Source of the DNA: Planctomycetota bacterium
GTDB lineage: Bacteria > Planctomycetota > UBA1135 > UBA2386
Direction of reading: 5' to 3'
NCBI GenBank assembly: GCA_050245995.1
Contig: JBFWWV010000029.1
Span: 14,652-78,651 of the forward strand
Length of the DNA: 64,000 bases
The notes below the pieces were generated by a model, which did no database searches, was not told the origin of the DNA, and saw only the letters and a list, made by a program, of their open reading frames with translations. Made by a program: the position numbers and the translations under genes. Positions 25,722 to 29,537 of the stretch are shown here, one piece after another. Positions within the stretch are counted from its first letter, which is position 1. Each line of letters opens with the position of its first letter.

Positions 25722-26375
25722 TCAAAGGGCCGCCACCGCCACCAAGAACAGGGTGGCCGAACCGAGGAAGCGCCCGAACTGCGACAGCTGGTCGAAGCTG
25801 CCGACCGACAGCGTCTTCTGCAGCAGGGTCTCGCCGCCGCCGGCGTCGGTGCGCACCGTCAGCACGTACACTCCGCGCAGCGGGTCCTCGTCGGGACCGA
25901 CGCCGGCGACGTGCACGAGCACGTCGAAGTGCGCGCCCGAGTTGGGCGCCAGCAGCGCCACGGTCTCGCCGCCGTCGGTCGCCCGCAGCGCGTCGGCCCC
26001 GGATGCCCCGGCCCCGGATGCCCCGGCCCCGGATTCCTCTGCGTTGGGCCGCCGCTCGAGCGAGAACATGCCGAGCCGCACCGGCCAGCTCTCGTCGGTG
26101 CCGTTCCAGGCCAGGAACGGCAGCCGGAACCGCAGCGCGCGGCACGGCGCACCGCCACCCGGCGGCGGTTCGGCGAGGCACAGGGCGCCCGGCACGCGGA
26201 ACTCGCCCGGCGGCACCTCGACCACGTCGAGCTGCACGGTCTCCAGGCGCAGGCGCACGTAGCGCGCGCCCGCGCCCTCGAAGCCGAGGTCCGGGTCGGC
26301 GACCAGGACGCCGGTCGTGCACGACGAGAAGCCGAGCAGCGCGAACAACAGCAGGGATCGGGCCAAGGTCACCAT
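25722..26375 (-). CDS. Hypothetical lipoprotein with C-terminal hydrophobic tail
   Basis: MVTLARSLLLFALLGFSSC lipobox; internal 15-bp x3 repeat (SGAGA); start overlaps upstream stop. Confidence 0.7.
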   Translation of the reverse strand: MVTLARSLLLFALLGFSSCTTGVLVADPDLGFEGAGARYVRLRLETVQLDVVEVPPGEFRVPGALCLAEPPPGGGAPCRALRFRLPFLAWNGTDESWPVRLGMFSLERRPNAEESGAGASGAGASGADALRATDGGETVALLAPNSGAHFDVLVHVAGVGPDEDPLRGVYVLTVRTDAGGGETLLQKTLSVGSFDQLSQFGRFLGSATLFLVAVAAL

Positions 26376-27382
26376 CGCCAGTGCGAGTTGGAGAACAGGG
26401 TGTAGACGTCGAAGCTGACGCGCAGCCCGTAGGTCGGGCCGAAGTCGGTGCTGTTGGCGAAGTCGTTCCAGGTCTCGAACCGCAGCCCGGTCGCCCACTG
26501 CACGTAGAGCCCGGCGAACCAGATGTCGACCGGCTCGCCGGCGCGCTGGAAGAAGCCGGTGTCGTACGACGCGCTGAGGCCGAACTCCGGGTTGCCGAGG
26601 AACTGCAGCACCGGGTTGCCGGAGTCGACGCGCGGCGGCACCAGACCGAGCCGCACCTCGGTGACGTTCGAGAAGTCGGCGACGTCGGCCCAGGCGTTGC
26701 CCGGCTCGTTCCAGCTCGACCGGTTGGCCACGGTCAGCCGCAGGTGGCGGTCGAACACGAACGTCTCGGGCACCAGCAGCGACCCGCCGGCGTGCACCAC
26801 CGCCTCGTGGTACAGCGTGCTCGTGCCGGCACCGAGCCCGAAGAACATCCGCGTGCGCCAGCCGACCGGATCCTCGATCGTGCCGTCGCCGAACAGGCGC
26901 GGCCCGTCGAGCCACTTGGTCAAGGTCGCGCTCGCGGCGTACTCGGTCTCCTCGCGCACCGCCGCGACCGGCACCGCCGCCTGGCCGAGGATCTCGTGCA
27001 CGTAGTCGTTCTGCAGGAAGCGCGTCGGCTGGTCGCCGCTGTGGCCGACGCCGCCGGTGACCGTGACGAACAGGTCGGGGTCGCGCGGCGTGTTCTCGGT
27101 CCAGCTCAGCGACAGCAGGTTGAAGCCGGTGGTCTCGGTGATCTCGTTGAAGCGCTGGCCCGTCTTGCTGAACTCGGTGAACCGGTTCAGGTGCCACGCG
27201 AGCCGCAGCTCCGGACGATCGGACGGCAGGATGCCGCCGCCCCAGTGGGCCTCGGGCATCAGGCTCTGCGCGCGCAGGTCGGCGCCGGTACCCACGGCGC
27301 CGCACAGCGCGAACGCGGCCGCCAGCGGGGCCTTGTCGCGGCGGGACGGGGTCTGGGTCGCGCGCGGCAGCGGGGAATGCAA
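26369..27382 (-). CDS. Probable outer-membrane beta-barrel protein (weak LpxR-like resemblance)
   Basis: Signal-like N-terminus, alternating beta strands, aromatic-rich C-terminus; GHSGDQPTRFLQNDYVHEILG. Confidence 0.6.
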   Translation of the reverse strand: MHSPLPRATQTPSRRDKAPLAAAFALCGAVGTGADLRAQSLMPEAHWGGGILPSDRPELRLAWHLNRFTEFSKTGQRFNEITETTGFNLLSLSWTENTPRDPDLFVTVTGGVGHSGDQPTRFLQNDYVHEILGQAAVPVAAVREETEYAASATLTKWLDGPRLFGDGTIEDPVGWRTRMFFGLGAGTSTLYHEAVVHAGGSLLVPETFVFDRHLRLTVANRSSWNEPGNAWADVADFSNVTEVRLGLVPPRVDSGNPVLQFLGNPEFGLSASYDTGFFQRAGEPVDIWFAGLYVQWATGLRFETWNDFANSTDFGPTYGLRVSFDVYTLFSNSHWRW

Positions 27383-27544
27383 CGGCTGCCCCTACGCGAC
27401 GATGCACGCGCCCGGTCGCGAATGTCCGGGGCCCGGCAAAGTTCACCCGGTACCGCTCCGACTTCGCCGGACCGCGTGACCGGGATCCTGGCAGGTCGTG
27501 CCAGCGAGGCGCGGGGCGACGCAGCGCCCCGCGCCTCGATCGCG

Positions 27545-27886
27545 TCACCGGACCTTCGCCGGCTCCTTCGCCTCCTTCAGTGCCATCAACATGTCGTCGA
27601 CGTCGACCTTGGCCTGGTCGTAGGTCACGTCGAACTCGCGCTTGCCGACCTCGATCGCGATCGAGCTCACGCCGGGCAGCTTCTGCAGGGCGCCACGCAC
27701 GGTGGCGACACAGCCGCCTCAAGGCGTCTTGTCGAGGATCAGCATCGCCTGCGACTCGGCGCCGGCGGTCACGCCGGGGGTCGCCGGCTGGGCGGGCTCG
27801 GCCGTGCAGGACGGCAGGCCCAGCGCCGCGGCGGCGCACAGGGCCAGGGTCGGACCCAACAGGCCCGAAACGGAACGGATCTGCAT
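27545..27886 (-). CDS. Candidate selenoprotein: lipoprotein with heavy-metal-associated (HMA/MerP/CopZ-like) domain, UGGC motif (113 aa)
   Basis: AAAGGAG RBS; lipobox LPSC27; in-frame TGA at 27719-27721 (codon 56), then GGCVATVRGALQKLPGVSSIAIEVGKREFDVTYDQAKVDVDDMLMALKEA continuing an HMA fold to the stop at 27545. Confidence 0.8.
27691..27718 (-). promoter_or_regulatory. Putative bacterial SECIS element
   Basis: After UGA: 11-nt spacer, stem CGCCAC/GUGGCG, loop CGUGC beginning at +18 with G in second position. Confidence 0.65.
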
Positions 27887-28004
27887 CGAAGCTCCTTTCG
27901 CGGTGGAACGGATGGACGGCCGCCACTGCGGCGGCCGGCGGGGAATACGACCATCGCCGGCCTGCGGTTGCACCCGGTTCTCCCCTGCGGCACAACTCGG
28001 GACC

Positions 28005-29537
28005 ATGCCCGTCCCCCCCGTGCCCCGGCCGCAGCCCCCGCGTCGCGCGCGCCGCTGCGCCGCGGCGGCGCTGCTGCTGACGTTCGCCGCCGCCGGGACG
28101 GCGCAGGAGGCGGCACTGCCGATGCCGCCGCCGCTGCCGCACCGCGAGTTCCGCGCCGCCTGGGTCGCCACCGTCGACAACATCGACTGGCCCAGCCGCA
28201 AGGGGCTGCCGACCGCGGCCGCGCGCGCCGAGCTGCTGGCGCTGGTCGACGAGGCGTCGGCGCTCGGCCTCAACGCGCTGGTGTTCCAGGTGCGGCCGAG
28301 CGCCGACGCGTTCTATCGCAGCGAACGCGAGCCCTGGTCGGAGTGGCTGTGCGGCGCGCAGGGCCAGGCGCCGCAGCCGGCGTGGGACCCCCTGGCCGAG
28401 CTGCTCGACTACGCGCACCTGCAGGGCCTCGAGGTGCACGCGTGGTTCAACCCGTTCCGCGCGCGGCACCCGGCCGCGAAGTCGCCCGACGCCGCCGAGC
28501 ACGTGCTGCGGCGCATGCCCGATGCGTGCGTGACCTACGGGTCGTACCGCTGGATGGACCCGGGCGACCCACGCGCCGCCGACTGGTCGCTGGCGGTGAT
28601 CGCCGACGTCGTCGCGCGCTACGACGTCGATGGCATCCACCTCGACGACTACTTCTATCCGTACCCGGAGAAGGGCGCGCCGTTCCCCGACGAGGGCTCG
28701 TACCGCGGCTACCGCCAGGGCGGCGGCACGCTGGCGCGCGCCGACTGGCGCCGCGCCAACATCGACGCGTTCGTCTGGCGGCTGCAGCGCGACACCCACC
28801 AGCAGAAGGCCTGGGTCAAGGTCGGCATCAGCCCGTTCGGCATCGCCCGCCCCGGCGTGCCGCGCGGCATCCAGGCCGGCATCGACCAGTACGAGGAACT
28901 CGCCGCCGACGTGCTCGGCTGGCTGCAGCGCGGCGAGGTCGACTACCTGGCGCCGCAGCTGTACTGGCCGATCGACCAGGAGCCGCAGAGCTACGCCGTG
29001 CTGCTGCCGTGGTGGTGCGGCCAGAACACCGCGCGCCGCCACCTGTGGCCGGGCCTGTCCGCCGGCCGCGCGCTGGCCGCCAAGGCGCCGTGGCGAGCCG
29101 ACGAGCTCGGGCAGCAGATCGAGATGACGCGCGCGCAGACCGCGACGTCGCCGGGCCACGTGCTGTTCAGCTGGCGCGCGCTGCGCGCCGGCAGCCCGCA
29201 GCGCGATGCCCTGCGCGCGCAGCTGCGCGCCGTCTACCGCGAGGCCGCCGTGGTGCCGGCGTCGCCGTGGCTCGACGAGGACGCGCCGCTGCCGCAAGAG
29301 CCGCGGGTGACGCTGCAGCGCGACGGCGACCGCGTGCAGGCGCTGGTGACCTGCGACGACCGCGCGCGGTTCTGGTGCGCGCAGGTGCTGGTCGGTCCCC
29401 GCTGGCTGACGCTCTGCGTCCGCGGCGCGCGCTCGCCCGGCGTCGAGCTGCCGCCCGGCTGCAGCGCCGTCGCCGTGCGCGGGGTCGCGCCGAACGGGCT
29501 GCTCGGCGAACCGGCGGTGCTACCGGTGCCGCGCTGA
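28005..29537 (+). CDS. Glycosyl hydrolase-like 10 (YddW/DigH family) protein
   Basis: EFRAAWVATVDNIDWPS, FQVRPSADAFY, HAWFNPFR, YDVDGIHLDDYFYPYP, DYLAPQLYW. Confidence 0.92.
   Translation: MPVPPVPRPQPPRRARRCAAAALLLTFAAAGTAQEAALPMPPPLPHREFRAAWVATVDNIDWPSRKGLPTAAARAELLALVDEASALGLNALVFQVRPSADAFYRSEREPWSEWLCGAQGQAPQPAWDPLAELLDYAHLQGLEVHAWFNPFRARHPAAKSPDAAEHVLRRMPDACVTYGSYRWMDPGDPRAADWSLAVIADVVARYDVDGIHLDDYFYPYPEKGAPFPDEGSYRGYRQGGGTLARADWRRANIDAFVWRLQRDTHQQKAWVKVGISPFGIARPGVPRGIQAGIDQYEELAADVLGWLQRGEVDYLAPQLYWPIDQEPQSYAVLLPWWCGQNTARRHLWPGLSAGRALAAKAPWRADELGQQIEMTRAQTATSPGHVLFSWRALRAGSPQRDALRAQLRAVYREAAVVPASPWLDEDAPLPQEPRVTLQRDGDRVQALVTCDDRARFWCAQVLVGPRWLTLCVRGARSPGVELPPGCSAVAVRGVAPNGLLGEPAVLPVPR

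Follow-up and report, generated by a model that had tools for sequence, protein, structure and literature searches.

We found that a 64,000-nucleotide stretch of DNA from a Planctomycetota bacterium (hereafter the window) carries on its minus strand what is best read as an intact gene for a 113-residue selenoprotein, a tethered periplasmic metal binder built on a heavy-metal-binding (HMA) domain. We give this overall reading a probability of about 0.8. Its two parts differ in strength: comparison of homologous genes makes the selenoprotein identity of the gene very probable, and analogy with known HMA domains makes a metal-binding role of the product reasonably probable.

Results

A UGA codon lies at the first ligand position of a predicted HMA lipoprotein

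The complete coding sequence occupies positions 27545..27886 on the minus strand, begins with an ATG at 27886-27884, and specifies 113 residues plus a terminal TGA when it is translated with read-through. Translation of the minus strand from 27886 to 27545 yields MQIRSVSGLLGPTLALCAAAALGLPSCTAEPAQPATPGVTAGAESQAMLILDKTP-TGA-GGCVATVRGALQKLPGVSSIAIEVGKREFDVTYDQAKVDVDDMLMALKEAKEPAKVR-TGA, such that 55 codons lead to the TGA at 27721-27719 and 57 more lead to a second TGA at 27547-27545. Apart from the internal TGA, the frame contains no other stops or frameshifts. An earlier note on this DNA had placed an in-frame TGA at the first Cys of a CxxC motif, and that placement holds; the note omitted the strand, which is the minus strand. 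The UGA at codon 56 (27719..27721, minus strand), which we read as selenocysteine (Sec, U), supplies the first ligand position of a U-G-G-C metal motif, and the TGT codon of Cys59 (27710..27712, minus strand) supplies the second ligand of this UxxC motif in an invariant column. With standard ORF calling the gene falls into two pieces, an N-terminal fragment and a 51-codon fragment that starts with GTG. A Shine-Dalgarno-like AAAGGAG, which the earlier note had also reported, can be read from the sequence at 27892..27898 on the minus strand, 5 nt ahead of the ATG. On the other side of the gene, 10 nt past the terminal TGA, a G+C-rich inverted repeat (GGCGCGGGGCG-CUGCGU-CGCCCCGCGCC; 27508..27535, minus strand) without a T-run represents a probable transcription terminator. 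Because this putative terminator follows the terminal TGA, the selenoprotein gene is probably monocistronic.

The predicted product has three parts. Residues 1-27 (27806..27886, minus strand) fit the pattern of a lipoprotein signal peptide, with the lipobox Cys27 encoded at 27808-27806. The lipobox of the window's protein, L-P-S-C, departs from the canonical form L-[AV]-[AG]-C of its homologues, and Cys27 is invariant in 26 sequences. Residues 28-43 (27758..27805, minus strand) form a flexible tether rich in Pro, Ala and Thr, which has pLDDT values of 47-61 and varies in length and sequence among homologues. Residues 44-113 (27548..27757, minus strand) constitute an HMA domain with the ferredoxin-like β-α-β-β-α-β fold, as indicated by an AlphaFold model, fold matching and profile alignment. 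These features suggest that the product is exported and lipid-anchored via Cys27.

Within the AlphaFold model, residues 44-113 have pLDDT values of 96-98 and the signal region is disordered. The model assigns strands to residues 44-51, 73-77, 84-90 and 110-112 and helices to residues 57-68 and 96-105, and it positions U56 and C59 where loop 1 passes into helix 1. The top fold match in the PDB was MerP (1osd), with a TM score of 0.89 on the target, an rmsd of 1.4 Å and 31% identity; 45 PDB HMA matches were obtained at E <= 1e-3, in which CopZ, ATP7A/B and other HMA domains came after MerP. Consistent with this result, the Pfam HMA model PF00403 scored 38.1 bits against a cut-off of 24.8, and it aligned residues 56-104 to profile positions 9-57, which puts residue 56 on position 9, where the metal motif has its first Cys. 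A profile of the family likewise matched MerP, CopZ and the metal-binding domains of ATP7B, and in ATP7B and MerP its U aligned with the Cys that follows MT in MTCxxC. The metal loop itself reads K-T-P-U-G-G-C, and the Met-Thr that usually precedes the first ligand is replaced in the family by Thr/Val-Pro. The lipoprotein signal and HMA fold proposed in the earlier note are thus borne out by the invariant Cys27, the AlphaFold model and the MerP fold match.

The UGA is conserved among homologues and alternates with Cys

We surveyed homologues by a six-frame search of 61 genomes, which comprised the window's own genome and 60 relatives from the same family and order. Exactly one TGA was present in 36 of 43 homologous matches, from 23 of the 61 genomes. 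We then considered 33 genes in which the position of the codon was checked: 24 came from the six-frame matches, eight were loci retrieved by an exact DNA pattern, and the last was drawn from a sample across the phylum. The TGA occupied the identical column in 33/33 of these genes, which represent many genera, and the surrounding motif was K-(V/T)-P-U-(G/N)-(G/S)-C-V-A-T-V-R-G-A-L. The exact DNA pattern, which spans the UGA and the hairpin described below, occurs at 16 loci. We consider the recurrence of the TGA in 33 genes to be far beyond chance.

Conservation extends to both sides of the UGA. Homologues align along the whole length of the protein, and in a family alignment of 26 sequences the only invariant columns are the lipobox Cys27, the U or C at position 56, and C59; V63, L67 and D90 are each conserved at >=90%. 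Among the Sec forms, an alignment of 13 sequences showed that VATVRGA, G72 and Y89, all downstream of the TGA, are invariant.

Cys replaces Sec at the codon-56 position in several homologues (L042, L043, L076 and L077, together with P0073, P0083, P0091, P0126 and P0137), which comprise two from relatives in the same family, two from elsewhere among the Planctomycetota families, and five database proteins of full length. The database proteins came from a profile search of 1.84 billion proteins, in which multi-repeat ATP7-like matches were dominant and only the five single-domain matches were informative. The Cys forms share the architecture of lipoprotein signal, tether and HMA domain, as exemplified by GRTPCAGCVEAVRSAL and GKSICKGCVAAVRGAL. 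Pairing of Sec and Cys at one position is the classical signature of a selenoprotein. The comparison of homologues that the earlier note had proposed, which set Cys or TGA conservation against random nonsense decay, therefore revealed a conserved TGA or Cys at codon 56 and no random decay.

The survey also revealed variants of the gene's arrangement and sequence. Many relatives contain tandem gene pairs in which each copy has its own TGA (G022:C3:465047-465639, G022:C8:53018-53604, G033:C8:36881-37464, G033:C62:19861-20435, G034:C283:1385-1956 and G010:C112:10949-11562), and the window's own genome contains a single copy. Two other homologues, L046 (G025:C186) and L047 (G019:C1), form a distant subfamily in which the canonical G/A-M-T stands ahead of Sec (GMTUNSC and AMTUGGC). 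These proteins differ in their C-terminal half, which is longer and contains additional Cys residues, and their hairpin is in another register.

A covarying hairpin follows the UGA

The RNA downstream of the UGA can fold into a structure that resembles a bacterial SECIS element. The upper hairpin (27691..27707, minus strand) consists of a CGCCAC/GUGGCG stem and a CGUGC loop, and the GU within the loop is located 21-22 nt past the U of the UGA. Bacterial SECIS prediction allows distances of this size, which is also close to that of G23/U24 in E. coli fdhF. In the minimum-free-energy fold, the hairpin is part of an extended SECIS-like stem-loop (27675..27718, minus strand), in which GGCGGCU (27718-27712) pairs with AGCUGCC (27681-27675) as a lower stem and UGU pairs with GCA as a middle stem. 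Homologues have comparable lower stems in variable register, such as AACGGCU/AGCCGUU and GGGG/CCCC.

Folding of the single sequence gave a z of -0.46, which is not significant against shuffles in a genome of 73% G+C, so support for a SECIS comes from comparative data. RNAalifold on a 54-nt alignment returned a consensus of four pairs and did not recover the hairpin; pairs were counted from the structure seen in single-sequence folds. Across 24 sequences, the hairpin positions could pair in 88.9% of cells, compared to <=50% when the partner columns were slid. The same sequences contained 14 double-change cells versus 3.4 in shuffles, and 0/500 shuffles reached as high a value. The compensatory pattern is illustrated by the change of GCC-ACC (Ala-Thr) to ACC-GCC (Thr-Ala), which is accompanied on the opposite side of the stem by the synonymous changes CGU->CGC and GGC->GGU. 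All six pairs are present in 27/32 Sec forms, in contrast to the Cys forms, 4/4 of which retain 0-3 of the six. The five Sec forms without the exact register have alternative hairpins with GUG-containing loops.

Codon usage within this segment is also unusual. A U that participates in pairing is contributed by the rare Arg codon CGT, which accounts for 4.9% of the genome's Arg codons, and the TGT codon of Cys59 is rare as well, at 8.7% of the genome's Cys codons. Codon periodicity just past the UGA is weak (0.30/0.22/0.39), which is probably due to the constraint that the hairpin imposes on third positions. The SECIS check that the earlier note had called for therefore turned up a covarying hairpin downstream of the UGA that is missing from Cys forms. 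Taken together, these comparisons strongly support the view that decoding of UGA-56 is directed by a SECIS hairpin inside the next 45 nt of the coding sequence.

The genome encodes the Sec machinery, and independent assemblies share the UGA

The window's own genome contains a tRNA-Sec (selC) that scored 78.9 bits and was called SeC(tca) by ARAGORN, as well as selA (478.6 bits), selB (326.9 bits) and selD (361.5 bits), all of which exceed curated cut-offs. Hence all four genes that the earlier note had listed for a genome search are present. The selA gene is directly followed by selD at C21:83708-86001, outside the window. Because selD carries an in-frame TGA within GSGUAAKL, the genome encodes at least one other selenoprotein. 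Among the 61 genomes, selA scored above its cut-off in 60, and on this basis Sec use appears to be universal in this Planctomycetota order. TGA otherwise functions as an ordinary stop codon in the window's own genome, where it terminates 80% of long ORFs and the selenoprotein gene too.

The TGA is also reproduced by independent assemblies, which bears on the sequencing error that the earlier note had raised as a caveat. Contigs assembled in a landfill study and in two studies of activated sludge match exactly over positions 27500-27950, and a diverged freshwater relative has no listed difference at 27719-27721. A search for RNA-seq runs gave none.

The family is common in one order and has no conserved metal-related neighbour

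Across the genome (6.37 Mb, 93% complete), PF00403 matches only the selenoprotein. The genome encodes one clear P1B-type ATPase (584 bits; C6:23580-25295), which has no recognisable HMA domain; the selenoprotein being the genome's only HMA protein, this pump lacks an HMA domain of its own. MerT (PF02411) was not found in the 93%-complete genome.

The gene's neighbours are a divergent gene resembling glycosyl hydrolase-like 10 (GHL10), a 337-aa ORF and ribD. The GHL10 gene (PF02638, 196 bits; 27642-29537, plus strand) is positioned upstream of the selenoprotein gene in divergent orientation. It is the only shared neighbour, adjacent in seven closely related loci, and this adjacency is probably plain synteny. 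The 337-aa ORF (26369-27382, minus strand) lies directly downstream and begins with a signal-like N-terminus; it had no Pfam match, and its position next to the HMA gene was not conserved in the other loci. Clustering of ORFs from 45 loci, combined with Pfam scans of 25 neighbouring genes, revealed no metal-related partner that is conserved, and the surroundings of the gene offer no hint of its function. Relatives' neighbours vary and include PSCyt/PSD1 proteins, an aldo-keto reductase, an amt-glnB pair, TPR proteins and methyltransferases, among others.

The named loci all belong to metagenome-assembled genomes of uncultured Planctomycetota from lakes, sludge, soil and similar habitats. A search for related loci with the single protein gave no tblastn-confirmed relative. 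When 400 genomes were sampled evenly across the phylum, high-scoring members with one TGA were present only in the window's family and order; elsewhere in this sample we observed generic HMA domains, Cys-form lipoproteins and different Sec forms. We conclude that the gene family is common in one order of uncultured Planctomycetota.

Three lipoproteins of a different Planctomycetota family merit separate description: L067 (G439:C81:9260-9890), L068 (G167:C41:38440-39035) and L069 (G374:C7:800-1390). Each has an HMA domain with two in-frame TGAs in the motif GITU-x-G-U, followed by a thioredoxin-like tail, and in 2/3 of them the tail contains a third TGA (HGPGUVP and HGAGUPP). They scored 52-55 bits against the cut-off of 95 for the NCBIfam model NF041115, and they may be a selenoprotein fusion, with as many as three Sec residues, that has not yet been catalogued.

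The family falls below curated cut-offs and is truncated in databases

No curated NCBIfam model captures the family: none of the 26 aligned members (0/26) reached an NCBIfam cut-off, and the scores of the window's own protein, at 37-40 bits, lie below the 91-95 bits required. Among NCBIfam models, that for MerP (TIGR02052) aligned best over the full length (residues 21-112), with 40.3 bits where the cut-off is 92.55. The best NCBIfam E-value, 2.8e-10, was given by the CopZ/Atx1 models (NF033795 and NF033794), with 40.2 versus 91 and 34.8 versus 95 bits, again short of the cut-offs. NF041115 (UxxU_metal_bind) was the NCBIfam family matched by 25/26 aligned members; the best member had an E-value of 1.4e-12, and the window's protein, at 37.4 bits, did not reach the cut-off of 95. 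A word-index search of 5.8 billion protein clusters with the full-length read-through protein returned no match. The earlier note had predicted that standard annotation would miss this protein, and its full-length form is indeed absent from the cluster search; the family is truncated in protein databases.

HMA-type selenoproteins are already known as a kind (PMC2398784, PMC13188914, NF041115, NF045683), in agreement with the earlier note's statement that MerP/HMA-like examples had been noted in surveys. The GOS survey catalogued a heavy-metal P-type ATPase with UxxC and a selenoprotein labelled 'MerP', for which it lists two sequences from marine metagenomes and gives no motif or Cys homologues (PMC2398784). 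A UxxU 'metal-binding protein', NF041115, appears in the table of a 2026 review (PMC13188914), and NCBIfam additionally catalogues a MerT/CopZ fusion selenoprotein (NF045683). Among the HMA selenoproteins in PMC2398784, PMC13188914 and NCBIfam, we found no entry for a stand-alone lipoprotein UxxC HMA family. The Planctomycetota lipoprotein UxxC family is thus one that databases and curated models have missed.

Discussion

Alternatives to a selenoprotein

Three alternatives deny that UGA-56 specifies Sec. The codon is one base away from TGC or TGT, so that an error of sequencing or assembly could in principle have created it; the identical contigs of three independent studies, the freshwater relative with no listed difference at the site, and retention of the TGA in dozens of other assemblies leave this explanation a negligible probability. 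A genuine stop could instead have arisen by nonsense mutation in a gene for an ordinary HMA lipoprotein of the Cys type; the split gene is indeed handled as truncated by gene callers and protein databases. However, a decaying gene is hard to reconcile with the same TGA column in 33 genes, a protein that is conserved on both sides of it, a covarying hairpin, and the lack of other stops or frameshifts. We regard a pseudogene as highly improbable, and the comparative data effectively refute it. The third alternative is that the UGA is read through by other means, either by near-cognate insertion of Trp or Cys or under a reassigned code, both of which have a basis in the read-through and UGA reassignment that occur in some bacteria. 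This account is very unlikely given that TGA ends 80% of long ORFs and the selenoprotein gene itself, that the genome has complete Sec machinery, including a Sec-type SelD, and that the site aligns with Cys and is followed at the expected distance by a SECIS-like hairpin. Sequencing error and a recoded genome are excluded.

The main functional rival accepts the selenoprotein and assigns its Se-S pair a redox role, such that a selenenylsulfide/selenol-thiol couple at the UxxC would be the centre of a periplasmic oxidoreductase, or of a peroxide or redox sensor, on an HMA scaffold. Several observations are compatible with this idea. Most known bacterial UxxC selenoproteins are thiol-type oxidoreductases (PMC2398784, PMC13188914), MerP was crystallised with its CxxC oxidised (title of 1osd), the selenoprotein gene has no metal-related neighbours, and an HMA UxxU lipoprotein of another Planctomycetota family is fused to a thioredoxin-like tail. 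In contrast, the fold and the best matches of the protein are all metal-binding HMA domains. We know of no HMA-fold oxidoreductase that has been described. Furthermore, the catalogued HMA selenoproteins are read as metal binders (PMC13188914), and on balance we consider a redox centre improbable.

A proposed tethered periplasmic metal binder

We propose that the selenoprotein is most likely tethered to the membrane on its periplasmic side, where a selenolate/thiolate pair would bind a soft metal, Cu(I) or Hg(II). According to this model, SelB in complex with Sec-tRNA(Sec) would recognise the hairpin, which would result in insertion of Sec at UGA-56. The exported protein would be lipidated at Cys27 and held at the membrane by its tether of approximately 16 residues, facing the periplasm. 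Sec56 as selenolate and Cys59 as thiolate would then form a two-coordinate site for Cu(I) or Hg(II), which might also accept Ag, Au or Cd. The low pKa and high polarisability of selenium would make binding tighter and ligand exchange faster in an oxidising compartment such as the periplasm, and the protein may buffer the metal or hand it over at the membrane surface. The metal site and its exchange properties are modelled on the biochemistry of the HMA domains of MerP, CopZ and Atx1. Because the gene has no mer or cop operon context, the specificity for a metal and the role as chaperone or sensor stay inference.

A more ambitious proposal would make the protein an almost obligately Sec-containing, tethered periplasmic metallochaperone that is the cell's only HMA protein and in which Se serves as metal ligand and not as redox centre. 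We view this proposal as unlikely. If it were true, the protein might receive Cu(I) from the P1B-type ATPase that lacks an HMA domain, supply cuproenzymes of the periplasm, or scavenge Hg or Au where metals abound, as in landfill and sludge, and a selenium-dependent branch of extracytoplasmic metal handling would extend across a whole Planctomycetota order.

The family has consequences beyond its own function. Because gene callers split its members, and databases and NCBIfam miss them, counts of the Planctomycetota selenoproteome are underestimates. The protein would add to the few cases in which Sec probably serves as a ligand to metal, not as a redox catalyst, outside the cytoplasm. With Sec and Cys orthologues side by side, the family offers a natural experiment on how Se affects the affinity, exchange kinetics and oxidation resistance of an HMA domain, and a possible use lies in soft-metal capture or biosensing.

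Comparison with known systems

The closest structural counterpart is MerP (TIGR02052; PDB 1osd and 1afi), which is likewise exported, consists of one HMA domain and places its two ligands at loop 1 and helix 1. MerP of mer operons is soluble and uses Cys as the first ligand within GMTCxxC, whereas the protein described here has Sec within KTPUGGC and is predicted to be lipid-anchored; moreover, its genome lacks an identified MerT, and its gene is located outside any mer operon. The 'MerP' selenoprotein of the GOS survey is similar by its description, being MerP-like with a predicted Sec (PMC2398784). CopZ and Atx1 share the fold and the ligand positions; however, CopZ is cytosolic, contains only Cys at these positions and is usually encoded beside copA, in contrast to a protein that has a signal and lipobox at its N-terminus. 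The UxxC heavy-metal P-type ATPase selenoprotein has an HMA UxxC with Sec at the first ligand position, as seen here, but that domain forms the cytosolic N-terminal part of a pump, whereas the window's gene encodes a free, tethered protein of 113 residues that is predicted to be exported. NF041115 resembles the family in combining a stand-alone HMA-type domain with Sec in the metal motif; its members have two Sec residues (UxxU), and the protein described here has one (UxxC), encoded by a single internal TGA, in addition to a lipoprotein signal and a tether.
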